From positions 60,001-92,000 of the forward strand of contig CP144768.1 of NCBI GenBank assembly GCA_036689225.1: a stretch of 32,000 nt of DNA, in the 5' to 3' direction. The DNA is from Candidatus Saccharimonadota bacterium (GTDB lineage: Bacteria; Pseudomonadota; Gammaproteobacteria; Enterobacterales; Enterobacteriaceae). Position 1 is the first letter of the stretch. The number at the start of each line of letters is the position of its first letter. Of the stretch, positions 1 through 32,000 are shown in pieces. The position numbers were made by a program, and so were the translations under genes. The notes under the pieces were generated by a model. That model ran no database searches. It had not been told where the DNA came from and worked only from the letters and a program-made list of their open reading frames with translations.

Positions 1-648
1 ATTTCATAATAATGAATTTCTATTTATTTGTTTAATATTATTAAAAGTAAATTTTTTTTTTTTATATATTTTATATGTTTTTGGAAATTTTTTTATTAAT
101 AAAATACTTAATTTTGCCATATCATATGATGATGTATATTGTTTTTTATGATCTAAACCATGTGAATTTATAAAATTAGTATTTTTTAAATTCATTTTTT
201 TTTTATATTTATTCATTAATTTTACAAATTTTTTTTCACTACCAGATAAATATTCTGCTATAGCTACACATGCATCATTTCCTGATTGAATTATCATTCC
301 TTTATTTAAATCAGATATTTTAACTTTTTCTTTATTTTTTAAAAACATTAGTGAGGATTCTTTAAAAATTGGATTTTTTCAAAAAGAATTATTATTAATT
401 TTTACTAAATCATTTTTATTAATTTTATTTTTTTTTAAAAAATCTGATAAAATATAACTAGTCATAATTTTAGTTAAACTTGCTGGATATAATTTAAGAT
501 TATGATTTTTTTTAGCTAATATTTTAGTAGATTTATAATCTACTAAAATATAAGATTTTACATTTATATTTTTAATTGTTTTAGAATATAAATTTTTATT
601 GTATAAATATAATAAAAATAATAATAATAATATTTTATGTTTTTTCAT
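1..648 (-). CDS. dacA: D-alanyl-D-alanine carboxypeptidase (PBP5/6 family). The 3' end runs off the left edge of the window.
   Basis: ORF pieces 379..648 and 4..348 lie in one frame, joined by TGA at 379-381. A second TGA at 4-6 continues past the window edge. There is a signal peptide ([16 protein letters not shown]), an SxxK motif (ASLTK) and an SGN motif (QSGNDAC). The sequence is colinear with E. coli DacA (NDAW / SSLMFLKP / NRNGLLW), and both W positions are TGA. Confidence 0.9.
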
Positions 649-651
649 ATT

Positions 652-1731
652 TTAATTAAATGTTTCTTTTTTTTTTAATGACATAATAATTCCAAATATA
701 GATATATTAATTACTAATGATGTTCCTCCATAACTTATTAATGGTAATGGTATTCCTACTATAGGAAATATACCACTTACCATACCTATATTAATTATAA
801 TATGTATAAAAAAGTTTATTATTAAATTAGATATTAATAATTTACTAAATATATCATTTATATTTATTGAAATTATTATAGTTTTTATTATTAATATTAT
901 ATATATTAATAATATAATACATATTCCTATAAATCCATGTTCTTCAGCTATTAAAGTAAAAATAAAATCAGTTTTATTTTCTGGTATAAAATTAAATTTT
1001 GATTGTGTTCCTAAAAATATACCTTTTCCATATAATCCTCCAGATCCTATAGCTATTTTAGATTGATTTATTTGATAACCATTATTTAAAATATCTGTAT
1101 TTTTATTAAATAAAGTTATTATTCTATTTTTTTGATATTTATGTAATAAAAATTTTCATGATAATGGTATACTTAAAATTATTAATATTGTAATAAAAAA
1201 AATAATTTTTTTGTTTATTCCACTTAAATATAAACCTATTGCTCCATATATTAATATTAATATAGAAGTTCCTAAATCTGGTTGTAAAAATATTAGTATA
1301 CTTGGTATTAAAGTTATAATTATTATTAATATAATATTTTTTATTTTTTTTATTGGATAATTATTATATAATATTTTTGTTATTAATAATGGTACAGCTA
1401 TTTTGGCTATTTCAGATGGTTGAAATTTTATAATTTTTATATTTATTCATCTTTTAGCTCCATTTATTATATATCCATACAAAAAAACATACAATAAAAG
1501 TATATTACATATTATATATATAATATATGCATTGTTTATATAATCTTGTTTTTTTAATTTTATTAAATATAACATTATTATTAAACTGAATATTATATGA
1601 AAAATTTTTTTATATATTATAATTATATTTTTGTTACTTGCACTGTATAAAATTAATAAACTATATATTAAAATAATAATTATACATGATATTATTATAA
1701 TATCTATTTTTTTTATATATTTTTTATTCAT
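652..1731 (-). CDS. mrdB: SEDS-family peptidoglycan polymerase RodA (rod-shape determining protein)
   Basis: ORF 1447..1731 ends GAKR+TGA, matching E. coli GAQRW. Hand translation continues in frame to TAA at 652-654 (359 aa). It gives FQPSEIAKIAVPL, QPDLGTS, QSKIAIGSGGLYGKG and GIPLPLISYGGTS, all colinear with E. coli RodA. Confidence 0.9.
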
Positions 1732-1735
1732 AAAA

Positions 1736-3502
1736 TTATGTTTTAATTTTATTTAAAATAATAAAATCTGTTATTTTTCTTACTATTTCTCCTATTTTAT
1801 CTCCATTACCTCCATGTTCTAATATAATTGTAATTGCAAATTTAGGATTTTTATATGGTAAAAAAGCATTCATTAATATATGATCTTTAAAAGATTTTTT
1901 TATATTTTTTTGTTTTTCATAATGATTTTTTATTGAATATACTTGTGCTGTTCCTGATTTTACAGCAATTTTATATTTTGTATTTATAAAATTTCAATAT
2001 GCTGTTCCATTTTTTTTATGTGCTACTCCATACATACCTTTTTTAATAATTTTTCAATTTTTATTTTTTATATTTTTTATTATATATTTTTTATTTTTTT
2101 TTTTATATTTATTTAATAATAAATGTGGTTTTATAATATATCCATTATTTATTAGAATTAATAATGCTTGATGAATTTGTATAGGTGTTGTAATTAAATA
2201 ACCTTGTCCTATACCTATAGATATAGTATCTCCTAAATATCATTTAGAATCATATTTTTTTTCTTTTCATTTTTTATTAGGTAAAAATAATTTTTTTTCG
2301 TTTGGTAAATCTATATTTGTTTTATTTCCAAATTTAAATTTTTTAATTCAATTTATTATTTTTTTTATACCTAAATGATATGATAATTGGTAATAAAATG
2401 TATCTGATGATTCTTCTATTGATTTAATTATATTTAGTTTATTATGTCCTGTTTTTTTTCAATCATGAAATATTTTGTTTGATTTAGGTAATTTTCATCA
2501 TCCTGGATCAAACATTTTAAAATTTTTATTTATTATTTTTTCTTCTAATGAAGCTATAGCTATATATGGTTTAATAGTTGAAGCAGGTGGATATATTCCT
2601 TGTATAACTTTATTAAATAAAGGAGAATCTTTATTATTTAATATTTTTTTATATTTTTTTTTTGATATTTTTTTTGTAAATATGTTTGGATTAAAACTTG
2701 GTACAGATATTAATGATAATATATTTCCATTTTTACAATTTGTTACTATTATAGATGCGTTATTATTTTTTATTAAATTATAAATAAATTTTTGTAATTT
2801 TATATCTATAGATAATTTTATATTTTTTCCTGCTTTTGGTAATTTTATAATATATTTTAATATTGTTTTTCCTTTATTATTTTTAATAATTTTTTTATAT
2901 CCTTTTTTTCCATATAATTTTTTTTCATAATATTTTTCTATTCCTGTTTTTCCAGTTATATTTTGTTTGTTTTTATTATTAATATTTATATATCCTATTA
3001 CATGTGACAATATATTTTTAAATGGATAATTTCTTTTTGTATATTTTTTTATTTTTACACCTTTTAATAATGGTTTATATATATAAAATTTTATTAAGTT
3101 ATTTTTATTTATAATATGTGATATTTTAATATTATATTTTTTATTATTTTTATATTTTTTTTTAAAATATTTTATTATTTTATTTGATATTTTTATTTTT
3201 TTAAATATATTTATAATATTTATAAAATTTTTTATTTTATGTGGTAAAATATTAATATAATAATAATTTTTATTTATAGCTATAGGTATGTTATTTCTAT
3301 CTAATATAATTCCTCTATGTGGTATAATAGATATTATTTTAATATAATTTTTTTTAGATAAAATATAATATTTTTTAAAATTTATTATTTGTAATTTATA
3401 TATACAATATATTATATATATTAATATAAATGTTAAAATAATTGTTATATATATAATTCTATAAATAAAAATTTTATTTTTTTTTTCATATATTAATTTC
3501 AT
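1736..3502 (-). CDS. mrdA: Penicillin-binding protein 2 (elongasome transpeptidase)
   Basis: ORF 2498..3502 ends FDPG and is followed by two consecutive TGA codons (2495-2500), matching E. coli FDPGWW. The frame continues to TAA at 1736-1738 (588 aa). Motifs present are STIK (SxxK), SSDTF (SxD) and KSGTAQV (KSG). It sits directly upstream of rodA, as in E. coli. Confidence 0.9.
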
Positions 3503-3627
3503 ATTTTTAAAATTTATAAATAATGTTATAAATAATTTATTATTATTTATTATAATAAATAAATTTTATAATTTATATAAATTATTATTTATATAATATA
3601 AATAAATTTTATTTTTAGGGAAAAATA

Positions 3628-5298
3628 ATGTTTAAAAATCCTATTAAAACAAAAAGTTGAAATAAAATATTAAATCATTTTAATTTTATTAAAAATATTA
3701 AAATAATTGATTTATTTAAAAAAGATAAAAATAGATTTGAAAATTTTTCAAAAAATTTTAAGAATAAAATTTTAATTGATTATTCTAAAAATAAAATTAA
3801 TTTAGAAACAATTAATTTATTTTTAGAATTATTAAATGAAATAAATTTTAAAGATTATATTTTATCTATGTTAAATGGTGAAAATATTAATTTTACAGAA
3901 AATAAACCTGTTTTAAATTTTTTATTAAGAGATTTAAATAATAAATTATTAAAAAAAAAAAAAGAATTATTAGATTATAAAAAAGATATAGATGCAAATT
4001 TAAGTAAAATTAAATTTTTTACAAATAAAATAATAAATGGAAATTGATTAGGATATTCTGGTAAAAAAATAAAAAATATAGTTAATATAGGAATAGGTGG
4101 TTCAGATTTTGGTCCTAGAATGATTATAAAATCATTATATAAATATAAAATTAATAATAATCAAAAATTTTATTTTATATCTAATATTGATGTTTCAGAA
4201 ATTTTAGAATTAATTAAAAAAATATCTCCTGAAAATACTCTTTTTATAATTTGTTCTAAAAGTTTTACTACTATAGAAACATTATTTAATGCTAATATAA
4301 GTAAAAAATGAATTTTAGATTATTATGATAATAATATTTCTTCTTTAAATAATCATTTTATATTAATATCTAGTAATTTTAATGAAGCAATAAAATTTGG
4401 AGTAAATTTAAATAATATTTTTATTGTAGATGATTGAGTAGGAGGTCGTTATTCTTATTGTTCATCTTTTGGATTATCTATATCTATTTTTATGGGTTTT
4501 AAAAATTTTAAAAAATTACTTTATGGAGCTCATGATGTAGATTTACATTTTTTTAATTCAAATTTTGAAAATAATATACCTATATTATTAGCAATAATAA
4601 GTATTTGATATAATAATTTTTTTAATTATTGTATAGAAGCTATTTTAGTTTATAATAATAAATTATCTTTTTTACCAACTTATTTACAACAATTAATAAT
4701 GGAATCTAATGGTAAATATGTAGATTATAATGGTAATTATATAAATAATTATTATACTTCTCCAATAATTTTAGGAGGAATTGGAACTATATCTCAACAT
4801 TCTTTTTTTCAATTATTACATCAAGGTACTTATATTATTCCTTGTGATTTTATAGTTGAAATATCTAGTTTTTATAATATTGATAATTCTCATTTAGTAT
4901 TATTATCTAATTTTTTATCTCAAACTCAATCTTTAGCTTTTGGAGATAAAATATTTAAAAATAATTTTTTAAATAAAAAAAATATTAATATTTATAAATT
5001 TATGAGATTTAAAGGTAATAGACCTAGTAATAGTATTTTAATTAATAAAATTAATCCATATAGTTTAGGTGTTTTAATTACTTTATATGAATATAAAGTA
5101 TTTACTCAAGGAGTTATATTAAATATTTCTAGTTTTGATCAATGAGGAGTAGAATTAGGTAAAAAATTATCTAAATTTATATATCCTTGTTTAAAAAATA
5201 AATGTGATATTAATAGTAATATTTATAAAAATAAAATTTATTTAGATAATTCTACTTTAAATTTGATAAATTATTTTAAAAAAAATTTTAATTTTTAG
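3628..5298 (+). CDS. pgi: Glucose-6-phosphate isomerase
   Basis: An AGGGA Shine-Dalgarno-like motif (3617-3621) lies 6 nt before the ATG at 3628. ORF pieces 4120..4311 and 4699..5145 are in the same frame and are linked by TGA codons that align with E. coli Pgi Trp residues (GEW, DWVGGRYS, IWYNNF, FDQWGVELGK). Other matches are NIGIGGSDFGP and MESNGKYVD. The gene ends with TAG at 5296-5298. Confidence 0.92.
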
Positions 5299-5322: not shown

Positions 5323-5583
5323 ATGCCTAATATTAAATCTTCAAAAAAAAGAGTTTTAATTAATAAATATAGAAGAAAAATTAATAATATTAATAAATCT
5401 ATATTAAAAACTTATTTTAAAAAAGTTAAATTTTTTATTAATAAAAATAATAAAAAAAAAGCATTAATTAATTTTTATAAATTTCAATCAATTATAGATA
5501 AATTATATATAAAAAAAATTATTTGTTTAAATAAATCTTCTAGATATAAATCTATTTTAATAAAATTAATTAATAAATTATAA
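5323..5583 (+). CDS. rpsT: 30S ribosomal protein S20
   Basis: The 86-aa ORF begins MPNIKSSKKR, against E. coli MANIKSAKKR, and is lysine-rich throughout. An AAGGA motif lies at 5308-5312, upstream of the ATG. Confidence 0.9.
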   Translation: MPNIKSSKKRVLINKYRRKINNINKSILKTYFKKVKFFINKNNKKKALINFYKFQSIIDKLYIKKIICLNKSSRYKSILIKLINKL

Positions 5584-6360
5584 TTATAATATTTTTTTAT
5601 TTAAATTTTTATTTATTATATAATTTATTATTTTACAATATTGTTTTATATTTATTTTATTAATTCTAATATTTGGATTAATATTTATTAATTTAAATTC
5701 TTTAATATTTATAAAGTTTTTTATATTATTATATATTTTTTTATTTTTTTTAAAAAAAATATTATTCATTATATGAATAAATAAGTTTATTTTTTTTATA
5801 TTATATTTATTTTTATTAGAAGTTAATTTTAATAATGTTGATTCTATTTTTGGTTTTGGTTTAAAATTATAATTTTTAATATTTATTATTTTTTTTATTT
5901 TAAATAATGAATTTAAAATTATAGTTGTTTTAGTTTTTTTTTTATTTTTTTTATTAAATATTAAATTATTTGCTAATTGTTTTTGTAATAATATATGTAT
6001 ATCTTTTATAAATTTATAATTTTTTATAAATTTATATATTATTTTATGAGATATATAATATGGTATATTTCCAATTATTCTTATTTTTTTTTCAATATTT
6101 AAATTGAAATTAAAATTTAATATATCTATGTTGATAAAATTTATATTTAATTTACTTTTTTTTTTACATAATTTAATTAAATTATTATCTATATCTATAG
6201 CTGTTATATTTTTTGTATATTTATATAATTCTTTAGTTAATATACCATTACCACATCCTATTTCTAAAAAAAAATCTTTTTTTTTTGGTTTTATATATTT
6301 TATTATTTTTTTAATTATTTTTTTATTAATTAAAAAAATTTGTCCTATATCTTTATACAT
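5584..6360 (-). CDS. rsmA: 16S rRNA (adenine1518/1519-N6)-dimethyltransferase
   Basis: The 258-aa ORF carries GQIFL (E. coli GQNFL), the SAM-binding motif EIGCGNG, and IIGNIPYYIS (E. coli FGNLPYNIS). The C-terminal QYCKIINYI matches E. coli QYCQMANYL. Confidence 0.88.
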   Translation of the reverse strand: MYKDIGQIFLINKKIIKKIIKYIKPKKKDFFLEIGCGNGILTKELYKYTKNITAIDIDNNLIKLCKKKSKLNINFINIDILNFNFNLNIEKKIRIIGNIPYYISHKIIYKFIKNYKFIKDIHILLQKQLANNLIFNKKNKKKTKTTIILNSLFKIKKIINIKNYNFKPKPKIESTLLKLTSNKNKYNIKKINLFIHIMNNIFFKKNKKIYNNIKNFINIKEFKLININPNIRINKINIKQYCKIINYIINKNLNKKIL

Positions 6361-6393: not shown

Positions 6394-9204
6394 TTATATA
6401 AATTTTCTTTTTTCGCCATTTCCAAATAAATTTTTTTTACATCTTTTACATATATTATATTCTTTAATTTTGTATATATTTTTTACATAATGTCAACATC
6501 TTTTACATTTAATTCCTTTTATTTTTTTACATTTTATTTTAAAATTTTTATATTTTTTTTTTTTATTTAATATTTTTATTTTTAATTCTGATGTTATAAA
6601 AAAAAATTTTAATTCTGATTTAATTTTTTTAATTTTATTATAAAATTTTTTTTTTATATATAATATTAATTTTATTTCTAATGAAGATTTTATTTTTTTA
6701 TTTACTTTTTTTTTTTCTAAAATTTTATTAAAATTATTTTTTATATTAATTAATTTTTTTCAAATATTTTCATTTATTTTATTATTTTTATGTAAATAAA
6801 AAAGTTTATTAAATCAAGTTTCTTTATATATTGAAGAATTTTTTTTTCTATTTGGTAAATATTTAAATATTTCTTCTGATGTAAAAGATAATATAGGTGA
6901 TATTCATTTAGTTATTGATTCTAATATCATTCATATAGTAATTTGTAAACTATTATATGGAATAGTATTTTTTTTTATAGTATATTTTCTATCTTTTATT
7001 ATATTTAAATATATTGAACTTAAATATATTGTACAAAAATTTATAATTTTTTTAATTATTTTATAAAATTTAAATTTTTTATATAAATATATAATTTTTT
7101 TTTGTGTTTTTTTTGTTTTATGTATAATTCATTTATCTAATAATAAAATATTTTTTTTTTTTATATTTTTTTTAATAAAATCATAGTTGTCTAAATTTGA
7201 TATTAAAAATTTTATTGTATTTCTTATTTTTCTATATAATTCTATTGTTCTTAATATGATTTCATTTGATATATTTATATCATTATAAAATTTTGTTGAT
7301 GATGTTCATAATCTTAAAATATCTGATCCAAATTTTTTTATTATTTTATTAGGATTCATATAATTTTTTAAAGATTTTGACATTTTTTTACCATTTTTAT
7401 CTATTATAAATCCATGTGATATTATTTTTTTATATGGTGCACAATTATTTATTGCAGTATTTATTATTAAAGATGACATAAATCATCCTCTAAATTGGTC
7501 TGATCCTTCTATATATATATCACTTATTATATTTTTTTTAAATTTTGGATTAATTATTGTAAAACATGTTGCACCTGAATCAAATCATACATCTAATACA
7601 TCTTTTATTTTTTTATATTTTTTATGTTCTTTTCCTAAAATTTTTTTTTTATTTATATTATTTCAATATTCTGGACCAATTTTTTTAATTTTTTTTATTA
7701 TTTTTTTCATTAAAAATATTGTTTTTGGATGTATTTTTTTTGTTTTTTTATTTATAAATATTGGTATTGGTGTTCCTCATATTCTTTGTCTAGATATACA
7801 TCAATCAGGTCTATTAATTATCATTTTTTTAATTTTTTTATATCCTCATTTAGGTATTCATTTTACTTTTTTAATTGATGTAAGAAGTTTTTTTCTTAAA
7901 TTATTTTTATTTATATTTATAAATAATTGAGATGTAGATTTAATTAAAATTGGTTTTTTATGTCTTCAACAATGAGGATATTTATGTAATATATTTTCTT
8001 CTAATATTATTTTATTTTTTTTTTTTAATACATTAATTATTATTTTTTCTGCATTTAATATATTATTATTTTTTATATTTTTTATATATTTATATTTTAT
8101 ATATTTTCCATGTTTATTAATTAAATTAATTCCTTTTAAATTATTTTCCTTACATATTTTATAATCTTCTTCACCATGTTCAGAAGCTATATGAACTATA
8201 CCTGTTCCACAATTTTTATCTATATTATTATTTAATATTATAGGAGTTTTATTATTTGATATTGGATGAATTGCTAATATTTGTTTAAATAATTTTCCTT
8301 TAATTGAATATATTTTTTTATAATTTATATTTGTTTTTTTTATTATTTCTTTTATTTTATTTTTTAATATTATATATATATTTTTTTTTTTTTTTATAAG
8401 TGAATATTTATATTTTGGATGAATAATTATTCCACAATTTCCAGGTATTGTTCATGGTGTTGTAGTTCATACAATTAATTTTAAATTATGATTTTTATAT
8501 TTTTTATAATTTATATTTATTTTTTTAAAAAATTTTATTTTATTAAATATTTTAAATATGAAATATATTGATTTTGATATTTTATTTTTATATTCTATTT
8601 CTGCTTCTGCTAAAGAAGATTTGCATTGAGTACATCAATTTATAGGTTTTTTTTTTCTTTCTATAAAATTTAGTTTTATTAATTTTCTTAATACTTTTAT
8701 TGTATTTGATATAGTTTTAAAATTCATTGTTTTATAATAATTTTTTCAATCAGCTAATATTCCTAATCTTATGAAATTATTTTTTTGTTTTTCAATTTGT
8801 AAATTAACATATTTAAAGCATGATTTTTTAAAATTATTATAATATTTATTTTTAGATTTATTTTTTTTTTTTTTTAAAATTTCTAATTCTATAGGTAATC
8901 CGTGACAATCTCAACCTGGAATATAATTTATATTAAAATTCATAAAATTTTTATATTTTATTATTATATCTTTTAATATTTTATTATAAGCATGTCCTAA
9001 ATGTATATTTCCATTTGCATATGGAGGACCATCATGAATTATAAAATTTTTTTTATTATTTTTTTTTTTAATATTTAAATATAAATTATTTTTTTTTCAT
9101 TTTTTTAAAATATTAATTTCTTTTATATTCAAATTTGCTTTCATAGGAAAATTATTTTTTGGTAAATTAATTGTAGATTTATAATCTATATATTTTTTTT
9201 TCAT
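6394..9204 (-). CDS. ileS: Isoleucyl-tRNA synthetase
   Basis: No long ORF appears in the track because of the many TGA codons. Hand translation from the ATG at 9204 gives:
- [25 protein letters not shown], then [23 protein letters not shown] (HIGH motif)
- [13 protein letters not shown], with W encoded by TGA
- KMSKSLKN (KMSKS motif)
- a C-terminal zinc knuckle CKRCWHY...[18 protein letters not shown], against E. coli GDGEKRKFA
The stop is TAA at 6394-6396 (936 aa). I did not check every codone of the interior. Confidence 0.88.
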
Positions 9205-9373: not shown

Positions 9374-9400
9374 ATCTTTATATAAGATTAAAATTTTAAT

Positions 9401-11328
<1,928 letters not shown>

Positions 11329-11363: not shown

Positions 11364-12491
11364 ATGTCAAATAAAGATTATTATGATATTTTAGGTATTT
11401 CTAAAAAAGCTAATAAGCAAGAAATTAAAAGAGCATATAAACGTTTAGCTATTAAATATCATCCTGATAGAAATAAAGGTAATAAAATTTATGAAGAAAA
11501 ATTTAAAGAAATACAAAAAGCTTATGAAATATTAAATGATGAAAAAAAAAGATCTATGTATGACCAATATGGTCATACTGCTTTTAATCAAGAAAATTAT
11601 AGTAATGATTTTAATTATACTAATGATTTTAGTGATATTTTTGGAGATGTTTTTGGTGATATTTTTAGTTCGAAAAAAAAAAAATATTCTAATAATGATA
11701 ATATAAATTCTAATGTTATATATAAAATTAATATTACTTTAGAAGAAGTAATTAAAGGTGTTACTAAAAAAATTAAAGTTAATTTAATACAAAAATGTAC
11801 TATATGTAATGGAAATGGTTGTAAACCTGGTACAAATCGTAAAGTATGTTCTACTTGTAATGGTAATGGAAATATTCATATTAAACAGGGTTTTTTTACA
11901 ATTCAACAAACATGTCCTTCATGTAATGGTGATTGTTATATAATTAGTGATGTTTGTTATATTTGTAGAGGTTCAGGTACTAAGAAAGTATATAAAAATT
12001 TTTTTATTAAAATTCCTTATGGAATAAATAATGGTGATCGTATACGTGTAGTTGGAAAAGGTAATTATAATATATATAAATCTAAATTTGGAGATTTATA
12101 TATTGAAGTAAATGTTAAAAAACATTCTATATTTAAAAGATTTAATAATGATTTATATTGTAAAATTCCTATAAATTTTGCTATAGCAGCATTAGGAGGA
12201 AATATAAAAATACCTTCTTTAGATAAAAAAATAATATTTAAAATTCCTCCAGAAACTCAATCTGGTAAAATATTTCGTATAAAAAATAAAGGTATTAAAT
12301 CTTTTAAAGATAATAAATTTGGTGATTTATTATGTAAAATAATAGTAGAAACTCCTATTAATTTAAATAAAATTCAAAAAAAATTATTATATGATTTTGG
12401 TATAACTTTGAATAAATATAAAAAAAAAAATAATCCTAAATCAGAAAGTTTTTTAAATAATATAAAAAATTTTTTTAATTCTTTAATTTAA
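11364..12491 (+). CDS. dnaJ: Co-chaperone DnaJ (Hsp40)
   Basis: The J-domain carries YHPDRN. There are four zinc-finger repeats (CTICNGNG, CSTCNGNG, CPSCNGDC, CYICRGSG). The gene lies directly downstream of dnaK. Confidence 0.95.
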   Translation: MSNKDYYDILGISKKANKQEIKRAYKRLAIKYHPDRNKGNKIYEEKFKEIQKAYEILNDEKKRSMYDQYGHTAFNQENYSNDFNYTNDFSDIFGDVFGDIFSSKKKKYSNNDNINSNVIYKINITLEEVIKGVTKKIKVNLIQKCTICNGNGCKPGTNRKVCSTCNGNGNIHIKQGFFTIQQTCPSCNGDCYIISDVCYICRGSGTKKVYKNFFIKIPYGINNGDRIRVVGKGNYNIYKSKFGDLYIEVNVKKHSIFKRFNNDLYCKIPINFAIAALGGNIKIPSLDKKIIFKIPPETQSGKIFRIKNKGIKSFKDNKFGDLLCKIIVETPINLNKIQKKLLYDFGITLNKYKKKNNPKSESFLNNIKNFFNSLI

Positions 12492-14486: not shown

Positions 14487-14592
14487 TTATTTTTATATAT
14501 AAATTATATATATCTTTTAATATTTTTTGTTATATTATATAATAATATATATATTATAATAATTTTGTAAATTTTATATTTTTAATTTTAAA

Positions 14593-14982: not shown

Positions 14983-15006
14983 TTATTTTATATATTATAT
15001 TAATAT

Positions 15007-16308: not shown

Positions 16309-16314
16309 TTTTTT

Positions 16315-17730: not shown

Positions 17731-17732
17731 GT

Positions 17733-18143: not shown

Positions 18144-18164
18144 TTTTAATTAAATTGATAATAT

Positions 18165-19556: not shown

Positions 19557-20406
19557 TATTTTTTTTATATATTTTAATAATATTTTTTAATAATATAGAT
19601 ATTGTCATAGGTCCTACTCCTCCGGGAATAGGAGTAATATATTTTATTTTTTTTATTATTTTATTATTTAATTTTATATCTCCTTTTATTTTATTATTTT
19701 TGATATTAAATCCTATATCTATAATTATACAATTTTTTTTAATATTTTTAATAGAATATTTATTATATTTTCCTATTGCACTTACTAATAAATCAGAATT
19801 ATTTATATAATTATTAATATTTTTAGTTTTTTTATTTACTATTGTAATAGTACATCCATGATTAAATAATTCCATACTCATTGGTTTACCTACTAAATTT
19901 GATGATCCTATTATTAAAGCATTTAATCCTTTTAGTTTTATATTATTTATTTTTAATAATTTTATTACTCCATATGATGTACATGATCTTATATAAGGAT
20001 TTCCTTGACATAATTTACCTATATTATATGGATGTATTCCATCTACATCTTTATTATAATTAATATGATTAATTATTTTATTTGTATTTATTTTTTTTGG
20101 TAGTGGAAGTTGTATTAGTAAACAATCAATATTTTTATTTTTATTTATTTGTTTTATTTTTTTTATTATTATTTTTTCATTAATATATTTATTGTAGTTA
20201 TATATTTTATATTTTATATTAGTATATTTAAAATATTTACATTTTTGGTTTATATAAATTATTGATGATTTATTTTTTCCTATATTTATTATATTTATAT
20301 TAGGTTTTCTATATTTTTTTTTTTTAAAATATTTTATTTCTTTTTTTATTTTTTTTTTTGTTAAATTAAGATATTTTTTACCATATAAAAATTTATATTT
20401 TTTCAT
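19537..20406 (-). CDS. folD: Bifunctional methylene-THF dehydrogenase / methenyl-THF cyclohydrolase
   Basis: Matches include LLIQLPLP, KDVDGIHPYNIGKL, IIGSSNLVGKPMSMEL and TPIPGGVGPMTI. The track ORF ends at TGA (19549-19551). Read as Trp, the frame runs three more codons to TAG at 19537-19539 (289 aa). Confidence 0.92.
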
Positions 20407-20462: not shown

Positions 20463-20535
20463 GCGCTCTTAGCTCAGTGGATAGAGCAACAGCCTTCTAA
20501 GCTGTAGGTCACAGGTTCAAATCCTGTAGAGCGTG
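20463..20535 (+). tRNA. tRNA-Arg, anticodon UCU (reads AGA/AGG)
   Basis: The 73-nt cloverleaf folds by hand as GCGCTCT/TA/GCTC-AGTGGATA-GAGC/A/ACAGC-CTTCTAA-GCTGT/AGGTC/ACAGG-TTCAAAT-CCTGT/AGAGCGT/G. The anticodon TCT lies at 20496-20498. It closely resembles E. coli argU. No 3' CCA is encoded (TTT follows). Confidence 0.93.
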
Positions 20536-20537: not shown

Positions 20538-22880
20538 TTATTTTTTTTTAAAAGGATTTTTTTCAAGTGAAATTTTTAATACTTGTTTAATATTTTTTAA
20601 ACAATAAATTTTTATTTTTTTTTTTATTTTTTTTGGTATTTCTTCTAAATTTTTTTTATTTCCATAAGGAATTATTATATTTGTAATTTTTTCTTTAATA
20701 GATGCTAATATTTTTTCTTTTAATCCTCCTATAGGAAGTATGTTTCCATGTAAAGTTATTTCTCCAGTCATAGATATATTTTTTCTTACAAAAATTTTTG
20801 TTAAAGTTGATATAATTGATGTACAAATTGTTATTCCTGCACTTGGTCCATCTTTAGGTATAGCTCCTTCTGGAACATGTACATGTATATCTTTATTAAA
20901 ATAGAAATTTTTTTTGATATTTAATTTTTTATATAATGATTTAACTACTGTTAATGATATTTTTATAGATTCTTTCATTACTTTTCCAAGGGATCCTGTA
21001 TATATTAATTTTCCTTTTCCTGGAGTACATAATGTTTCTATTAATAATATTTCTCCTCCCATTTCAGTTCATGCTAATCCTATTACTTGTCCTATTTTAT
21101 TTTTTTTATATATTTTTTCTTTATAAAATTTTTTTATACCTAAATATTTTTTTATATTTTTTTTATTTATTTTTATATTTTTACATTTTTTATTAATTGT
21201 TATTTTTTTAACTGTTTTTCTACATATTTTAGCTATTTCTCTTTCTAAAGATCTTACTCCTGATTCTTTTGTATAATATTTTATTATTTTTATTATTACA
21301 TTATTATTTATTTTTAATTCATTTTTTTTTAAAAAATTATTTTTTATTTGTTTAGGTATTAGATATTTTTTTGCTATATTAATTTTTTCGTATTCATTAT
21401 ATCCAGATAATTTAATTATTTCCATTCTATCTAATAATGGTATAGAAATATTATTAATTGAATTAGCTGTAGCTATGAACATTATTTTTGATAAATCATA
21501 ATCTATTTCTATATAATGATCATTAAAATAATTATTTTGTTCTGGATCTAATACTTCTAGTAATGCAGATGATGGATCACCTCTTATATCAGAAGATATT
21601 TTATCAATTTCGTCTAATAAAAATAATGGGTTTTTTACTTTTGATTTTGTTATTTTTTGTATTATTTTACCTGGCATAGATCCTATATAAGTTTTTCTAT
21701 GTCCTCTTATTTCTGCTTCATCTTTAATTCCTCCTAATGACATTTTAATATATTTTCTTCCAGTTGCTTTTGCTATAGATTTTCCTAAAGAAGTTTTACC
21801 TACCCCTGGTGGTCCTATAAAACATAATATTGGACCTTTTATTTTATTAGATCTATTTTGTACAGCTAAATATTCTAAAATTCTTTCTTTTATATGTTTT
21901 AATCCATAATGATCTTTATCTAATATTTTTTTTGCTTTATTTAAGTTTTTTTTTATTTTAGTTTCTTTGTATCATGGTATTTGTATAATTCAATCTATAT
22001 AACTTCTTATTACTGTAGCTTCTGCAGATAATGGAGACATTATTTTTAATTTTTTTGATTCTAATTTTATTTTTTTTTTTATTTCATTTGGTAATTTTAA
22101 TTTTTTAATTTTTTTTTTTAATATATCATATTCATTTAAATTTTTATTTTTATTGTTAAGTTCTTTTTGTATAGCTTTTATTTTTTCATTTAAATAATAT
22201 TTTTTTTGATTTTTTTCTATTTGTTTTTTTATTCTTTTTTTTATTTTTTTTTCTATTTTTAAAAATTCTATTTCTGATTGAATTATTAATAGAATATATT
22301 TTAATATTTTATTTATTTCTGATAATTCTAATATATATTGTTTATGTTTTAATTTTATTGGTAAATGTGTTGAAATAATATTTGTAAATTTTTCTATATT
22401 ATTTATATTATTTAATGAATTTAATATTTCTATAGGTATTTTTTTATTTAAATTAATATAATATTTAAATTGATTTTTTATTGTTTTTACTAAAATATTT
22501 TGTTTTTTAATATTTTTTTTTTTTATTTTAATTTTTTTAATAAATCCTATAAAATATTTTCCTTTATCTTGTATTTCTATTATTTTAGCTCTATATATTC
22601 CTTCAACTAATATTTTAACTGTATTATCAGGTAATTTTATCATTTGTAATATATTTGATAATGTTCCTATATTATATAAATCTTTTATATTTGGATCATT
22701 ATCAAAAGGGTTTTTTTGAGCTACTAACATAATTTGTTTATTTTGTTTTATAGATAATTTTAAACAAAATATAGATTTTTTTCTTCCTATAAAAAGAGGT
22801 ATAATTGTATTAGGATATATAATTATATCTCTTAATGGTAGAATTGGAATCTCAATATTTTTTTGAGATTTTATATGCAT
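20538..22880 (-). CDS. lon: ATP-dependent Lon protease
   Basis: Three ORF pieces share one frame. TGA codons fall on E. coli YIDW, VPW and GLAW. Hand translation of the 21744-21989 gap gives the Walker A motif [11 protein letters not shown]. The catalytic motif PKDGPSAGI is present. The stop is TAA at 20538-20540 (780 aa). Confidence 0.95.
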
Positions 22881-22883: not shown

Positions 22884-24101
22884 TTATTCCTTTATTTTTT
22901 TAAATATAATTTTAGGTTTTTTATTTTTTTTTATTGTATTTTTATTTATTATTATTTTTTTTATATTTTTTTCTGATGGACAAGTATACATAATATTTTT
23001 TAAAATATTTTCTATTATATTTTTTAAACTTCTAGCACCTATTTTTTTTTTAATTGATTTTTTTACTATTTCTTTAAGAGATTTTTTTGTAAATATTAAT
23101 TCTATATTTTCTAATTTAAATAAATATTTATAATATTTTATTATAGAATTTTTAGGTTTAATTAATATTTTAAATAAAGAATTTTTATTTAATTTATTTA
23201 ATTTTATTATTATTGGTATTCTTCCTATAAATTCTGGTATTAATCCAAAATTTATTAAATCTTTTGTTTCTATATTTTTATTATAATAATTATTTTTTTT
23301 TTTATTTAAATTAGCATTAAAACCAATATTATTATAATTATTTAATCTTTTATCTATAATTTTATTTATTCCATTAAATGTACCACTACATATAAATAAT
23401 ATATTTTTTGTATTTATAGGTATATAATTATCTTGAGGATGTTTTCTACCTCCTTTTGGAGGTATATATACTATACTTCCTTCTATCATTTTTAATAATG
23501 ATTGTTGAACTCCTTCACCTGATACATCTCTAGTTATGGATATATTTTTTGATTTTTTTGCAATTTTATCTATTTCATCTATAAAAATTATACCGTTTTC
23601 TGTTTTTTTTATATCAAAATTACATTTTTGTAATAAATTATATATAATATTTTCAACATCTTCTCCAACATATCCTGCTTCTGTAAATCTTGTAGCATCT
23701 GTTATACAAATTGGAATATTAAATTCTTTTTCTATTATTTCTGCTAATAATGTTTTACCACAACCAGTTGGACCTATTAATAATATATTAGATTTATTTA
23801 AAGTATATTTATAATTATTATCATTAATAATTTTATAATGATTATATATTGTTGTAGATATTATTTTTTTTGCATCATTTTGATTTATAATATATTTATC
23901 TAATATATTTTTTATATTTATAGGTTTATATTTATTTATATTAAAATATATATATTTTTTTTTATTATTTTTATTTTTTTTATTAAAAAAACATATACAA
24001 TTATTACATATATATATATTTTTATTTATTAAAATTTTTTTATTATTTTTTTTACATATTGAACAGTATATTTTTTTATTAATTTTATTTTCTATATTCA
24101 T
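22884..24101 (-). CDS. clpX: ATP-dependent Clp protease ATP-binding subunit ClpX
   Basis: This is a single 405-aa ORF. It has an N-terminal C4 zinc motif (CSICKK...CNNC), a Walker A motif (GPTGCGKT), and the segments [13 protein letters not shown] and [14 protein letters not shown]. Confidence 0.96.
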
Positions 24102-24111: not shown

Positions 24112-24717
24112 TTAATTTTTTTTTTTAATAAAATATTTACGTTTAGTTAATATTTTATCTATTATTCCATATTTTAGTGCCTCTTTTGGTGATAAAAATT
24201 TATCTCTTTCTGTATCTGTTTTAACTTTATTATATTTTTGTCCAGTATTATTAGAAAGTAATTTAGTAATTTTTTTTTTAATTTTAATTATTTCTTTTAC
24301 TTGTATTTTAATATCTGTAACTTGTCCTTTAAAATTTCCTAAAGGTTGATGTATCATAATTCTTGAATTAGGTAAACTAAATCTTTTATTTTTTTCTCCT
24401 GAAGATAATAATATTGCTGCCATTGAACATGCTTGACCTATACATATAGTATTTATTTTTGGTTGTATAAATTTCATAGTGTCATATATAGACATGCCTG
24501 AAGTTATAACTCCTCCTGGAGAATTTATATACATGTATATATCTTTTTTTTTATTTTGTGATTCTAAATATAGTAATTGTGTAATTATTATATTTGATAT
24601 TTCATCTTCTATATATCCTGTTAAAAATATAATTCTGTTATTTAATAATTTTGAATATATATTATATATGTTTTTATTTTCATTAAATATATTTTTATTT
24701 TTTTTATATAAATACAT
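24112..24717 (-). CDS. clpP: ATP-dependent Clp protease proteolytic subunit ClpP
   Basis: This is a single 201-aa ORF. It has [19 protein letters not shown], the catalytic Ser in GQACSMAA, the catalytic His in MIHQPLG, and DTERDKF. Confidence 0.96.
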
Positions 24718-24762: not shown

Positions 24763-25197
24763 TTATTTTTTATATTTTTTTATAATATTATCTAATATTT
24801 TATTTATTAATTTATAACTATTATATGCTCCAAATTTTTTTGCTAATAATATACTTTCATTTATTATTATTTTATAAGGTAGTGTTTTTTTTATTTTTAA
24901 TTCATATATTGATATATATAATATAGAATATTCTATTTTTCCTATATATTTTGTATTTTTATATATGTATTTATTTATTATATTATTTATGTGTTTATAA
25001 TATTTTTGTACTCCTTTTAAAATTTTAATTAAATATTTTATGTTTATATTATTTAATATATTTTTTTTAATTTTTTTAAATTCTTTAATTTTATATTTTA
25101 TATTTTTTTTTTTTTTTAATATATTTCATGAATATATAATTTGTAATGCTAGTTCTCTTGTTTTAATATTTTTATTAAATTTTTTATTTTTTTGCAT
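24763..25197 (-). CDS. nusB: Transcription antitermination factor NusB
   Basis: The gene is absent from the ORF track because of an early in-frame TGA. Hand translation from the ATG at 25197 gives MQKNKKFNKNIKTRELALQIIYSW..., against E. coli RECAVQALYSW. Further on, EYSILYISIYELKIKKTLPYKIIINESILLAKKFGAYNSYKLINKILDNI matches E. coli EKAVLRIALYEL...[33 protein letters not shown]. The stop is TAA at 24763-24765 (144 aa). Confidence 0.88.
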
Positions 25198-25200: not shown

Positions 25201-25422
25201 TTATTTATTACTTCTAAAAATTATTCTTCCTTTTTTTATATCATATGGACTTATTTCTACTGTAACTTTATCTCCTTTTAATATTCTAATATAATTTTTT
25301 CTCATTTTTCCTGATATATGAGCTATTATTTTATATCCGTTGTCTAATTTAACTTTAAACATAGTATTTGGTAATGTTTCTATTACTATACCTTTTATTT
25401 CTATATTTTTTTCTTTTATCAT
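25201..25422 (-). CDS. infA: Translation initiation factor IF-1
   Basis: The 73-aa ORF contains [46 protein letters not shown], nearly identical to E. coli InfA. Confidence 0.97.
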
Positions 25423-25423: not shown

Positions 25424-26428
<1,005 letters not shown>

Positions 26429-26468: not shown

Positions 26469-27764
26469 ATGTTAAATATTAAATTAATATTAAATAATAT
26501 TTCTTATTTTGAAAAAAAAATTAAAATTCGTAAAAAAAATTTTAATATAAATAAATTATTAAATATTTATATTATTTATAAAAAAATGTTAAAAGAAATA
26601 GAATTTATTAAATATAAACATAATTTTTTATCTAAAAAAGTTTTTTTATATAAAAAAAAATTTTTTCATTTAATTTATTTAAAATATTTTATTAAGTTAA
26701 TAAAATATAATATTATTTTTAAAAAAAAAAAATTAAAATTAATATTTATTAAATTAAATAAAATTATGTCTTATATACCAAATATTATAGATGATGAAGT
26801 TCCATTGGGTAAAAATGACAATTTTAATAAAATTATATATAAATGAGGAAAAATTAGAAAATATAATTTTAAAATTATAGATCATATTAATTTTGGTAAG
26901 TTTAATAATAGTATAGATTTAGAAACTTCTAGTATTATTAGTGGTTCTTCATTTAGTATTTTAAAAAATGATATTTGTATGTTATATAGAGCTATTTCTC
27001 AATTTATGTTAGATACTCATGTTATTTTAAATAAATATTCTGAAATATATGTTCCATATATAGTTAAAAATATATGTTTATATGGTACAGGACAATTACC
27101 TAAATTTAAAAATTATTTATTTCATATATTTAATAAATATGAAAAAGAAAAATTATCTTTAATTCCTACAGGTGAAGTTTCTTTAGTTAATTTATTTAGA
27201 AATAAGATATTATATGATAAAGATTTACCAATTAAGTTAGTTTCATATACACCTTGTTTTAGATATGAATCTAAATCTTATGGAAAAAATAATAGAGGTT
27301 TAATTAGATTAAATCAATTTGATAAAGTTGAATTGATACAAATAATTAAATCTGATTTTTCATCTATATGTTTAGACAAATTAACATTAGATGCTGAAAA
27401 AATATTAAAAATGTTAAAATTACCTTATCGTAAAGTTTTATTATGTAGTGGTTCTATGAATTTTAGTTCTTCTAAGACATATGATTTAGAAGTTTGATCT
27501 CCTATAACTAATTCTTATATAGAAGTTTCTTCTTGTTCAAATACTTTAGATTTTCAATCTAGAAGAATAAATTTACGTTATAAAAATATTAATAGTAAAA
27601 AAAAAGAGTTTTTACATATTTTAAATGGATCTGGATTAGCTATTGGAAGAATTTTAGTATCTATAATAGAAAATTTTCAAATTAATAGTGGTTTAGTTAA
27701 AATACCTAAAGTATTACATAAATATATGAATAAAAAAAAATATATTAATTGTTTTGAAAAATAA
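26469..27764 (+). CDS. serS: Seryl-tRNA synthetase
   Basis: ORFs 26469.. and 26979.. share a frame. TGA codons give YKWG (E. coli SRWG) and LEVWSP (E. coli LEVWIP). Other matches are YGTGQLPKF, TPCFRYES, RLNQFDKVE and LNGSGLAIGR. The stop is TAA at 27762-27764 (431 aa). Confidence 0.93.
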
Positions 27765-27768
27765 TAAT

Positions 27769-28779
27769 ATGAATATACATAAATTTTCTGTTGCTCCAAT
27801 GTTAAATTTTACTGATAAATATTGTCGTTATTTTTATAGTTTATTAAGTAAAAATATAAAATTATATACTGGTATGATAAATACTAGTTCTTTTTTATTT
27901 AGATATAAAAATAATAATTTATCTTATAATAATATTAAAAATAATATTGTTGCTATACAATTTATAGGTAATATACCTAAAGATTTATATCTTTGTTCAC
28001 AAATAGTTGAAAAATTAAATTTTTCAGAAATAAATTTTAATATAGGTTGTCCTTCTTTAAATTGTAAAAAAAATAATTTTGGTTTTTTTTTATATAAAGA
28101 TATACAAAAAATTATAGATTGTTTAAATGCTATAAGTTATGGATCATCAAAAATAATTTTATCTATTAAATTAAGAATTAATTTTTTATATTCTTATGAA
28201 AAATTTTTAAATTTTATTTATAAAATTTATATTAATACTAAATGTAAAATTTTTATTATTCATGCAAGAAGTATTATAAAAAATAATTTTTCTACAAAAT
28301 TTAATTTAAAACATCCATATTTAAATTATAATTGAGTATATAAAATTAAAAAAGATTTACCTAATTTAATAGTAATTATTAATGGTAATATTAATAGTAT
28401 TGAAAATATTGATTATCATTTAAAATATGTTGATGGAGTAATGATAGGAAGATATATATATAAGAATCCATTATTTTTATTAAATATTAATGAATATATA
28501 AAAAAAAAAAAAATATTTAATAATAATAAATTATTTAAATATAATTATAAAATAAATTTTAATATAAGAAAAATATTATTATATTTATATATTTATATTA
28601 AAAAAGAAATGTATTTAAAAAATATTAATCCTATTAATATTATTAAACATGTTTCTAATATATTTTATAATGTTAATAATTCTTTTAAATTTCGTAATAA
28701 TATTATTAAATCTTGTTATATATTTAAAAATTTTTATAATTATTTAAATTTTGAAAAATTTATTATTAAAGGATATTAA
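27769..28779 (+). CDS. dusA: tRNA-dihydrouridine synthase A
   Basis: KFSVAPMLNFTDKYCRYFY matches E. coli RFSIAPMLDWTDRHCRYFL. The gene also has NIGCPS with the catalytic Cys, FIIHARS, and VDGVMIGRYIYKNP. ORFs 27754.. and 28441.. share a frame through TGA at 28336-28338. I chose the ATG at 27769 over the TTG at 27754 used by the track. Confidence 0.85.
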
Positions 28780-28833
28780 TATTTTTTTTAAAAATATAAA
28801 TTTTAAAAAATAAATTTATAATAATTTTATTTT

Positions 28834-30495
28834 TTATTTATTTTTTGCTATTTTGAAAGCTTCAACCATACTATTATATAATATATTTTCTTTTTTTTTA
28901 TTATTATTATTATTTTTATATTTTTTTTTTGTTTTATTTATTATAAGATAAATTATTCTTTTTTTAATATCTATATTTATTATTTTTGTATTTATAATAT
29001 CATTTATTTTTTTTTTTTTTGTTATATATTTATATTTTTTATTTTTTTTATCTTTTATATTTATTTGTCCTTCTATATTATCTTTAAATATAACAAATAT
29101 TATATTATTTTTTATTTTAGTAATTTTAGATTTTATATTTTTTTTATTTTTATATATTTTTATATATTTATTAAGAGGATCTTCTTTTAATTGTTTTAAT
29201 CCTAAAGATATTCTTTCTTTATTTATATCTATTTGTAATATTATAGTAGTTATTTTTTCACCTTTTTTATATATATTTTTAAAATTATTATTTTTATTTA
29301 TTCAAGATATATCTGATGTATGAATTAATCCGTCTATGTCATTTTCTAATTTTATAAAAATTCCAAATTCAGTAATTGATTTAATAATACCATTAATTTT
29401 TTTTCCTATTTTATATTTTTTTGAAAAATTAATTCATGGATTAGGATTACATTGTTTAATTCCTAATGATATTCTCCTTTTTTCTTTATTTATATTTAAT
29501 ATTATTGCTTTTGTTTTTTGTCCTATTTTAAAAATTTTAAAAGGATTAATATTTTTATTTTTTCAATCCATTTCTGATATATGTACTAATCCTTCTATTC
29601 CTTCTTTTATTTCTATAAAACAACCATAATCAGTTATATTTGTTATTTTACCTTGTATTTTAGTATTTATTGGATATTTTTTTTCTATAGATTTTCATGG
29701 ATCTTTAGTTAATTGTTTTAGTCCTAAAGATACTCTTGTTTTTTCTTTATCAAATTTTATTACTTTTAATTTTATTTTTTGACCTATATTTAATATTTCA
29801 CTTGGATGTTTTACTCTTTTTCATGCTATATCTGTTATATGTAATAATCCATCTAATCCACCTAAATCTATAAATGCTCCATAATCTGTTAAATTTTTAA
29901 CTGTTCCATATAAATAAATTCCTTCATATATTTTTTTAAGTAATTTTTCTTTTTCATAGTTATTTTCATTTAAAATTATAGCTTTTCTAGATAATACTAT
30001 ATTATTTTTTTTTTTATCTAATTTTATTATTTTAAATTCTAATTCTTTTCCTTCTATTTCTGATATATCTTTTATTGGTTTAACATCTATTAATGAACCT
30101 GGTAAAAATGCTTTTATTCCATCTATATTTACAGTTAATCCACCTTTAACTTTACCATTAATAATTCCTTTAATATTTAGTGATTTATTATATGATTTTT
30201 CTATATTTAATCATGTTTCATATTTTTTAGCTTTTTCTCTTGATAATAGAGTTTCTCCTCATTCACTTGCTATATCATCTATAGATAAATCTACTATATC
30301 ATTTATATTTATGTTTATTTTTCCATTTATATCTTTAAATTGTTCTATTGGTATATATGATTCTGATTTTAATCCTGAATCTATAATTACTATATTATGT
30401 TTTATGTCTATAACTTTTCCTTTAATTATAGAACCATATTTTAAATTTTTTTTTTTGATTGATTTTTTAAATAATTTATTAAATAATTTATTCAT
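28834..30495 (-). CDS. rpsA: 30S ribosomal protein S1
   Basis: ORF 30259..30495 ([11 protein letters not shown]...[11 protein letters not shown]) continues through many TGA codons. Hand translation gives [37 protein letters not shown] and SEMDWKNKNI (each W is TGA). The C-terminus is [13 protein letters not shown]. The stop is TAA at 28834-28836 (553 aa), colinear with the six S1 repeats of E. coli RpsA. Confidence 0.92.
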
Positions 30496-30536
30496 ATTAT
30501 TTTATATATATGTATATTTTTAGTTTAAATATAATT

Positions 30537-30995
30537 TTAAAATGTTAAATCATCGAAATCTATAGATAAATCTTCATTTTTATTATTATCTATTTTTTTT
30601 TTTTTTATATTATTATTATTATTATTATTGTTATTAATATTATTATTTTTATTACCTAACATTTTCATTGTTCCTTTTGAATTTACTATTATTTCTGTTA
30701 TATATTTTTCATATCCATTTTTATCTTTTCATTTTCTTGTTTGTAATGATCCTTCTATATATATTTGTGATCCTTTTTTTAAATATTTTGAAGCTATTTC
30801 TGCTAATTTACCAAATAATATTACTTTATGTCATTGTGTTTTTTCTTTTTTTTCCCCTGTTTTTTTATCTTTTCATATTTCTGATGTAGCTATACTTAAA
30901 TTTATAATTGCATTTCCATTTGAAGTATATTTTATTTCTGGTTTTTGACCTAAATTACCTATTAAAATTACTTTATTTATACCTTTACTAGTCAT
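30537..30995 (-). CDS. ssb: Single-stranded DNA-binding protein
   Basis: Hand translation from the ATG at 30995 gives [94 protein letters not shown]. This is highly similar to E. coli SSB, and its three Trp residues are all TGA. A poly-Asn linker follows, then the acidic tip SIDFDDLTF (E. coli MDFDDDIPF). The stop is TAA at 30537-30539 (152 aa). Confidence 0.93.
30609..30650. repeat. Trinucleotide microsatellite, (ATT)7 followed by degenerate ATT units. On the coding strand this is (AAT)n, a poly-Asn tract inside ssb.
   Basis: ATT repeats seven times in perfect register at 30609-30629. It is followed by GTT ATT AAT ATT ATT ATT TTT ATT, in frame with ssb. Confidence 0.8.
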
Positions 30996-31107
30996 TTTAT
31001 TATTTTAGATTAATATTTTTATATATATTTAATTATAATGTATATATATAAAAATATATATATTAATTATTTTGTTTTTTTATATTATATATATTATAAT
31101 ATTTATT

Positions 31108-32000
31108 TTAATTATAGTTATCAAATTTTGATATTTCTCCATTAAATATTAGATTTATTTTTCCTATAGGTCCATTTCTTTGTTTACCTATTATTATTTC
31201 AGCAATTCCTTTAGATTTTATTTTATCATTATATAATTCATCTCTATATATAAACATTATTAAATCTGCATCTTGTTCTATTGATCCAGATTCTCTAAGA
31301 TCTGAATTAACTGGTCTTTTGTCTATTCTTTGTTCAGAAGATCTATTTAATTGAGATAAAGCTATTATAGGTATTTTTAATTCTTTAGCTAATAATTTTA
31401 ATGAACGTGAAATATCTGCTATTTCTAAAGCTCTATTTTCTAATGTAGAAGATGATTTCATTAATTGCAAATAATCTATCATTACTAAACTTAATCCTTT
31501 ATTTTCTTTGTATATTTTTCTAGTTTTTGATCTTATTTCATTATGTGTAATTGTACATGAATCATCTATAAATATATTATTTTTTTTTTTAAGTAAGTCT
31601 ATTATATTTGATATTTTTATTCAATCTTGATAATTTAGTTTACCTGTTTTTATTTTACTTTGTTCTATTCTAGATAAAGAAGATATTATTTTTATTATTA
31701 TTTGTTCTGATGACATTTCTAAACTAAATATTAATACTGGTTTTTTTTGATTAATTGATATATTTTCACATAAATTAATAGCAAATGTTGTTTTACCCAT
31801 TGATGGTCTACTTGCTATTATTATTAAATCTGATTTTTGTAATCCAAAAGTTTTTTTATTTAAATCTTTATAACCTGTATCTATTCCTGTTATATCAAAA
31901 CTTGGATTTTTATATAATTTTTTTATTTTTTTTTTAGTTTTTTTTAATATAGAATTTATGTTAATTGGATTATTATTTTTATTAATTTTTTTTTCTGATA
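31108..32000 (-). CDS. dnaB: Replicative DNA helicase DnaB. The 5' end lies beyond the right edge of the window.
   Basis: ORF 31108..31482 is nearly identical to the E. coli DnaB C-terminus (IDYLQLM, LSQLNRSSEQRIDKRPVNSDLRESGSIEQDADLIMFIYRDE, GKQRNGPIG, FDNY). The frame stays open upstream to position 32000. That stretch gives the Walker A motif ASRPSMGKTTFAINL and PVLIFSLEMSSEQI, and contains one TGA (QDW). Confidence 0.95.

Follow-up and report, generated by a model that had tools for sequence, protein, structure and literature searches.

The stretch analysed here is a 32-kb window of contig CP144768.1 (positions 60,001 to 92,000 of the forward strand; hereafter the window), which contains 27 protein genes, one tRNA-Arg (anticodon TCT), and rnpB. 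Its point of interest is the codon UGA, which is predicted from sequence comparison to be a sense codon for tryptophan (Trp) throughout these genes, with termination by way of UAA and UAG only. The guanine plus cytosine (GC) content of the window was 15.0%, within the 14-20% range of Candidatus Stammera capleta. The initial annotation, made from the letters and their open reading frames (ORFs), had proposed that UGA is read as Trp (translation table 4) and had called for a comparison of tables 4 and 11 and for an alignment to orthologs. Both were carried out and both agreed with the proposal. Stop-to-stop frames amounted to 41.3 kb under table 4 versus 28.7 kb under table 11, and the table 4 frames (stops TAA and TAG only) were long and did not overlap, whereas table 11 broke 19 of the 27 genes.

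The 25 larger genes were compared with their orthologs from Escherichia coli K-12 MG1655 by pairwise global alignment, in which TGA was masked as X so that the alignments were not biased towards Trp, and the alignments were then repeated with TGA scored as Trp. The stop-to-stop frames of these genes plus rpsT and infA held 74 in-frame TGA codons, two of which (9400-9402 and 27727-27729) precede the true starts of dnaK and dusA, leaving 72 within genes. With TGA masked, 63 of the 72 were positioned opposite an E. coli Trp, and this number rose to 65 when TGA was scored as Trp. Trp accounts for 1.1% of the residues in the E. coli orthologs (117 residues), so only ∼0.8 such pairings would be expected by chance (binomial P=3e-113). 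One-column slips at 379-381 in dacA and 18726-18728 in cysS vanished once TGA was scored as Trp. The 117 E. coli Trp positions corresponded to TGA in 63 cases and to TGG in none, the remainder being mainly Tyr, Phe, Ile, Leu, and Asn codons or unaligned positions. The features of the window are given below in window coordinates, and residue numbers are those of the E. coli orthologs.

1-648, minus strand: dacA, 5' part (the gene runs past the window at its 3' end), 47% identical to E. coli DacA; two TGA, 4-6 opposite W232 and 379-381 adjoining W105 (opposite W105 once TGA is scored as Trp).
652-1731, minus strand: mrdB/rodA; two TGA, 1447-1449 and 1156-1158, opposite W102 and W199; stop TAA.
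1736-3502, minus strand: mrdA (PBP2); eight TGA, 2498-2500, 2495-2497, 2459-2461, 2348-2350, 2267-2269, 2240-2242, 2054-2056, and 1994-1996, seven of them opposite Trp (the DPGWW pair included) and 1994-1996 opposite Lys532; stop TAA.
3628-5298, plus strand: pgi; six TGA (first bases 3658, 4045, 4309, 4435, 4606, 5143), all six opposite Trp; stop TAG.
5323-5583, plus strand: rpsT (ribosomal protein S20, 86 aa), a small ORF in the pgi-rsmA gap named by eye from its S20-like N-terminus; no TGA; stop TAA.
5584-6360, minus strand: rsmA/ksgA, 26% identical to E. coli RsmA, with the syntenic gene of CP043985.1 matching Pfam RrnaAD; no TGA; stop TAA.
6394-9204, minus strand: ileS; 21 TGA (first bases 9097, 8911, 8746, 8635, 8467, 8452, 7966, 7858, 7846, 7801, 7777, 7663, 7585, 7483, 7306, 7129, 6931, 6904, 6814, 6760, 6493), 20 of them opposite Trp and 6931-6933 opposite Tyr753; stop TAA (TGA in E. 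coli).
9415-11328, plus strand: dnaK, 74% identical to E. coli DnaK; TGA 9718-9720 opposite W102; stop TAA.
11364-12491, plus strand: dnaJ, the gene used for the tree; no TGA; stop TAA.
12488-13720, minus strand: glyA; TGA 13196-13198 opposite W183; stop TAA.
13902-14486, minus strand: tsaB, a weak alignment (20% identity to E. coli TsaB), with the syntenic gene of CP043985.1 matching Pfam TsaD; no TGA; stop TAA (TGA in E. coli).
14593-14982, plus strand: rodZ, a truncated gene of which the N-terminal ∼130 aa remain, aligning to residues 1-135 of the 337 of E. coli RodZ; no TGA; stop TAA.
15007-16308, plus strand: hisS; TGA 15328-15330 and 15814-15816 opposite W106 and W271; stop TAA.
16315-17730, plus strand: der; TGA 17590-17592 opposite Val421; stop TAA.
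17734-18143, plus strand: rnpB (RNase P RNA), Rfam RF00010, 191 bits, E=1.4e-60.
18165-19556, plus strand: cysS; eight TGA (first bases 18687, 18726, 18738, 18759, 18906, 19464, 19479, 19542), seven of them opposite Trp with TGA scored as Trp and 19479-19481 opposite Ala437; stop TAA.
19537-20406, minus strand: folD; TGA 19549-19551 opposite Pro285 in a poorly aligned C-terminal tail; stop TAG.
20463-20535, plus strand: tRNA-Arg (anticodon TCT), found by ARAGORN and Rfam, the sole tRNA of the window.
20538-22880, minus strand: lon; TGA 21990-21992, 21972-21974, and 21069-21071 opposite W297, W303, and W603; stop TAA.
22884-24101, minus strand: clpX, 46% identical to E. coli ClpX; no TGA; stop TAA.
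24112-24717, minus strand: clpP; no TGA; stop TAA (TGA in E. coli).
24763-25197, minus strand: nusB; TGA 25126-25128 opposite W20; stop TAA (TGA in E. coli).
25201-25422, minus strand: infA (IF-1, 73 aa), a small ORF in the nusB-trxB gap named by eye; no TGA; stop TAA.
25424-26371, minus strand: trxB; TGA 26219-26221 opposite W53 of the ENWPG motif; stop TAA.
26469-27764, plus strand: serS; TGA 26844-26846 and 27495-27497 opposite W126 and W346; stop TAA.
27769-28779, plus strand: dusA; TGA 28333-28335 opposite Arg210; stop TAA.
28834-30495, minus strand: rpsA; seven TGA (first bases 30259, 30211, 29821, 29695, 29563, 29434, 29302), six of them opposite Trp and 30259-30261 opposite Phe79; stop TAA.
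30537-30995, minus strand: ssb; TGA 30873-30875, 30831-30833, and 30729-30731 opposite W41, W55, and W89; stop TAA (TGA in E. coli).
31108-32000, minus strand: dnaB, 3' part (the gene begins beyond the window); TGA 31621-31623 opposite W294; stop TAA.

When all 64 codons were tabulated against the aligned E. coli residues, TGA alone departed from the standard code, and its specificity for Trp (88%) was on par with that of GGA for Gly and CCA for Pro. No other codon reassignment was found in this table, with ATA aligning to Ile, Val, and Leu, not Met, and AGA aligning to Arg. Translation of this sequence requires table 4. Most of the codon-level detail in the initial annotation was reproduced: the TGA coordinates it quoted for DnaK, PBP2, RodA, DacA, Lon, and Der each fall on a TGA codon, and the Trp positions it assigned to TGA in HisS (W106/W271), NusB (W20), TrxB (W53), and SSB (W41/W55/W89) were recovered, along with several in Pgi (6/6), SerS (2/2), IleS (20/21), and RpsA (6/7) and, with TGA scored as Trp, in CysS (7/8). 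Its assignment for DacA was correct at 4-6 (W232), but 379-381 was located opposite an adjacent Ala in the masked alignment and was matched to Trp only when TGA was scored as such. The dusA codon had been misplaced, as the triplet at 28336-28338 is GTA and the TGA opposite Arg is at 28333-28335. Only two TGA codons, those of dusA (Arg) and der (Val), had been thought to fall away from Trp, whereas the alignments revealed seven, these two among them.

The ends of the genes tell a matching story. Counting rpsT and infA, 26 gene ends are visible in the window, 24 of them TAA and two TAG (pgi and folD), and TGA was found as terminator at none of these; the initial annotation had given the same stop types for a count of 25. 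The ends match those of the E. coli proteins to within a few residues, and no TAA or TAG interruption was observed inside any gene. Among the E. coli orthologs, ileS, nusB, clpP, ssb, and tsaB terminate with TGA, and all five window counterparts terminate with TAA.

As the initial annotation had noticed at the positions it checked, TGG is absent from the reading frames: none was found among the ∼10,270 codons of the window, although the same triplet occurs out of frame 193 times on the coding strands. G- and C-ending codons have almost gone from the coding frames in general (AAG:AAA = 19:1665, GAG:GAA = 6:336, CAG:CAA = 2:172, and TTG:TTA = 14:790), with AAA making up ∼16% of all codons and ten codons (ACG, AGC, CCG, CGA, CGG, CTC, CTG, GCG, GTC, and TGG) having zero in-frame use. 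If TGA and TGG were synonymous at the 1-2% ratio of the other pairs, ∼1 TGG would be expected per 72 Trp codons, so that a count of zero fits mutational bias where the two codons can replace each other freely. The absence of TGG is thus in line with an extreme A/T pressure that strips nearly all NNG codons.

Candidatus Stammera capleta is an extracellular, pectin-degrading gut symbiont of Cassidinae (tortoise leaf) beetles, a member of the Enterobacterales with a tiny genome. In a search with one genome per species, the best matches to the window DnaK were two Candidatus Stammera capleta genomes (82% and 78% identity), whereas the DnaK of all other Enterobacterales gave values of about 75% or less. 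A mollicute origin was considered and rejected, the best DnaK matches being those of Stammera. A search with DnaJ returned ∼30 closely related sequences, located on NCBI contigs of 212-325 kb, and one of these was 100% identical to the window DnaJ. In a neighbour-joining tree of DnaJ, built from distances of this one gene and carrying no support values, the window was positioned deep inside the clade bracketed by the two Candidatus Stammera capleta genomes just named and well apart from Purcelliella, Buchnera, Donacia symbionts, Providencia, and others. The gene order dacA-rodA-mrdA-pgi-rsmA-ileS-dnaK-dnaJ-glyA…tsaB-rodZ-hisS is common to the window and the first of the two Stammera genomes, with protein identities of 55-82%, and the loci of CP144859.1 (L001) and CP043985.1 (L090) are collinear with the window over dacA…hisS/clpP. 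NCBI taxonomy files Stammera under Enterobacterales, and the Enterobacterales-derived symbiont that the initial annotation had recognized is in keeping with this filing, with the DnaK matches, and with the DnaJ tree. Taken together with the alignments, we conclude that the window is almost certainly chromosomal DNA of Candidatus Stammera capleta, to be read with table 4, UGA specifying Trp.

Some differences in gene content among the strains were also seen. The glyA gene (12488-13720) is missing between dnaJ and tsaB in CP043985.1 (L090 11129-11514), a strain with 83% DnaJ identity, and folD (19537-20406) is missing between cysS and lon in the same genome (L090 17274-17517); the window strain thus has two one-carbon/folate genes that the syntenic sites of this sister strain lack. 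In CP144859.1 (L001 ∼14270-18540), ∼4.3 kb without a window counterpart lies between glyA and tsaB.

Codon use at the E. coli Trp columns was also tabulated for syntenic loci of three Stammera strains and for two other Enterobacterales symbionts with reduced genomes, as follows.

Stammera, CP043985.1 (L090): 38 TGA and 5 TGG.
Stammera, CP144859.1 (L001): 37 TGA and 2 TGG.
Stammera, CP144822.1 (L044): 23 TGA and 4 TGG.
Nardonella (L043, 18.5% GC): 0 TGA and 4 TGG.
Dasytiphilus (L036): 0 TGA and 23 TGG.

The TGA codons of the window were paired in L090, L001, and L044 with TGA at 43, 36, and 22 positions and with TGG at 6, 2, and 3 positions, respectively. Synonymous codons would interchange between strains in just this way if purifying selection maintained Trp. 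The window strain is the same in kind as these relatives, but differs in having no in-frame TGG in 32 kb versus 2-5 TGG in ≤22 kb of the three strains. No in-frame TGA was found in the Nardonella and Dasytiphilus loci, indicating that low GC by itself does not yield the pattern.

Other explanations of the in-frame TGA codons were weighed against the reading of UGA as Trp. If the genes were pseudogenes in a decaying genome that kept the standard code, the TGA codons would be nonsense mutations, and such an origin could account for the interruption of 19 of the 27 genes under table 11 in a lineage of the kind, the reduced symbiont genome, that does gather pseudogenes. Random decay, however, would hardly have placed 63-65 of 72 TGA codons on conserved Trp columns, nor used TGA as the sole interrupter when TAA and TAG are far more accessible at 15% GC; moreover, other strains, diverged to 55-82% protein identity, carry TGA or TGG at these positions, the frames run intact to the E. 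coli ends, and essential genes (ileS, rpsA, dnaK, and ssb) are among those interrupted. We regard the probability of this explanation as negligible. A recoding of UGA to another residue deserves as little credence. Glycine (table 25) is the other known bacterial reassignment of UGA, and UGA also encodes selenocysteine, with cysteine as a further candidate; yet the residue opposite TGA was Trp in 88-90% of cases and, with TGA masked, never Gly or Cys. The total alignment score was 22,108 with TGA as Trp as compared to ∼21,280 with TGA as Gly or Cys, and published surveys report neither tRNA-Sec nor selB in Stammera.

It is also very improbable, if slightly less so, that the window represents a new case of code 4, one that arose independently within the Enterobacterales and had not been described. 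DnaK identity to the nearest species representatives is no higher than 78-82%, which would leave room for a separate lineage, but a DnaJ identical to that of the window is already in NCBI, the DnaJ tree puts the window deep inside Stammera, gene order and TGA positions are shared with Stammera genomes, and code 4 has been reported for Stammera since 2017.

Several observations weigh against the reading of UGA as Trp or against parts of it. Seven in-gene TGA codons are opposite residues other than Trp, namely those at 1994-1996 in mrdA (K), 6931-6933 in ileS (Y), 17590-17592 in der (V), 19479-19481 in cysS (A), 19549-19551 in folD (P), 28333-28335 in dusA (R), and 30259-30261 in rpsA (F); this number is unremarkable for proteins with 27-74% identity to those of E. 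coli. The folD codon, located four codons ahead of the TAG, can be taken for a stop just as readily, and it is unique in this respect among the TGA codons of the window; it has no E. coli Trp counterpart and may represent an earlier stop that has come to be read through. Neither a tRNA-Trp (by ARAGORN and Rfam) nor a copy of prfB, the gene for release factor 2 (RF2), was found in the window, and the parts of the reading that concern decoding and RF2 rest on published surveys. Those surveys also indicate that loss of RF2 is not strictly tied to the reassignment in this clade, with prfB present in 15 of 49 genomes but table 11 predicted for only five, as detailed below. As a separate observation on the folD region, cysS (plus strand) and folD (minus strand) are convergent and their 3' ends overlap by 20 bp (19537-19556), with one TGA of each gene inside the overlap (19542-19544 for cysS and 19549-19551 for folD).

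No tRNA genes were found in the Stammera loci L001 and L044, and the following account of prfB and tRNA-Trp comes from the literature. The type Stammera genome lacks prfB, keeps a tRNA-Trp with anticodon CCA, and uses UGA in 62% of its coding sequences. A survey of 49 Stammera genomes reports tRNA-Trp(CCA) and no tRNA-Trp(UCA), with UAA as 88-97% of stops, and prfB is recorded in 15 of the 49 (PMC13462651, Table 2); the RF2 loss that the initial annotation had predicted is thus reported for most Stammera strains but not for all. A 2026 preprint (bioRxiv 10.64898/2026.05.24.727570) describes five Stammera genomes, forming a basal group, that are still on table 11 and retain prfB. Going by these two sources, ∼10 Stammera strains seem to read UGA as Trp while having a gene annotated as prfB. 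A plausible sequence of events is that the loss or weakening of RF2 would leave UGA without a competitor, that tRNA-Trp(CCA) might then read UGA through a C34·A third-position mismatch or by virtue of a modification or a feature of the tRNA body, and that, with RF2 gone, the A/T mutational bias would push UGG to UGA almost to completion. The tRNA-Trp(CCA) of Stammera is reported to have an ordinary 5-bp anticodon stem, and the proposal that a 4-bp stem accounts for UGA reading, made for Zinderia, does not apply to Stammera.

The count of 0 UGG among 72 Trp codons in 27 genes raises the possibility, which we advance tentatively and hold to be somewhat doubtful, that UGG has gone from all coding sequence of this strain, so that every Trp would be inserted by a CCA tRNA that never meets its cognate codon. 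If true genome-wide, this situation would need a fully efficient C34·A mismatch, an undescribed modification of C34, or a change in the tRNA body or the ribosome. A strain without remaining UGG would offer a clean natural system for asking how a CCA tRNA decodes UGA.

A few further features of the window were recorded. The rnpB gene, which plays no part in the code change, fills the 431-bp gap between der and cysS and, at 21.8% GC, is among the most GC-rich stretches of the window. TsaB (13902-14486, minus strand) has ∼35 C-terminal residues fewer than E. coli TsaB. SSB comprises 155 aa versus 178 aa in E. coli, with a poly-Asn/Lys run in place of the linker, and it keeps the acidic C-terminal tip with Phe as the final residue (…DFDDLTF). 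No gene for the secreted pectinases characteristic of Stammera (polygalacturonase and rhamnogalacturonan lyase) was found among the window genes.

The reassignment seen in the window is real, yet both the phenomenon and the lineage have been in print since 2017, and the reassignment as such is no novelty. Code surveys (Codetta and gTranslate) already include Stammera among the lineages that read UGA as Trp, and later papers credit the finding to Salem et al. 2017 (Cell). About 50 Stammera genomes, of 0.22-0.34 Mb and 14-20% GC, have been published, and García-Lozano et al. annotated theirs with genetic code 4 (bioRxiv 10.1101/2023.12.12.571295). The independent origin that the initial annotation had thought possible is upheld insofar as the literature treats the Stammera reassignment as distinct from the ones in Mollicutes, Hodgkinia, Zinderia, and Nasuia, but the lineage was one already described as Stammera.

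Providencia is a member of the Enterobacterales, and Candidatus Providencia siddallii PSAC, a gammaproteobacterial leech symbiont, is the second published case from this order; like Stammera it keeps tRNA-Trp(CCA). Its reassignment is incipient, with UGA in only 20% of coding sequences as compared to 19 of 27 genes in the window, with prfB present although itself interrupted by UGA, and with ∼9 genes that may still stop at UGA, whereas none does so in the window. Hodgkinia cicadicola and Nasuia deltocephalinicola resemble Stammera as tiny-genome insect symbionts that read UGA as Trp and have lost prfB, but they belong to the Alpha- and Betaproteobacteria, respectively, Hodgkinia is GC-rich, and in both the tRNA-Trp anticodon is now UCA, fully cognate to UGA. 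The Mycoplasmatales (Mollicutes), the classical users of table 4, likewise read UGA as Trp and have lost RF2; unlike Stammera, they belong to the phylum Bacillota and nearly all possess a dedicated tRNA-Trp(UCA). Zinderia insecticola, a spittlebug symbiont of the Betaproteobacteria, shares with Stammera the reading of UGA as Trp, a very low GC content (13.5%), the loss of prfB, and a tRNA-Trp(CCA) with no UCA tRNA, but it belongs to another class and represents an independent origin. The tRNA-Trp(CCA) of Zinderia has a 4-bp anticodon stem, in contrast to the 5-bp stem reported for Stammera, and experiments in E. coli showed that tRNAs of this 4-bp type promote the reading of UGA (PMC13092985).

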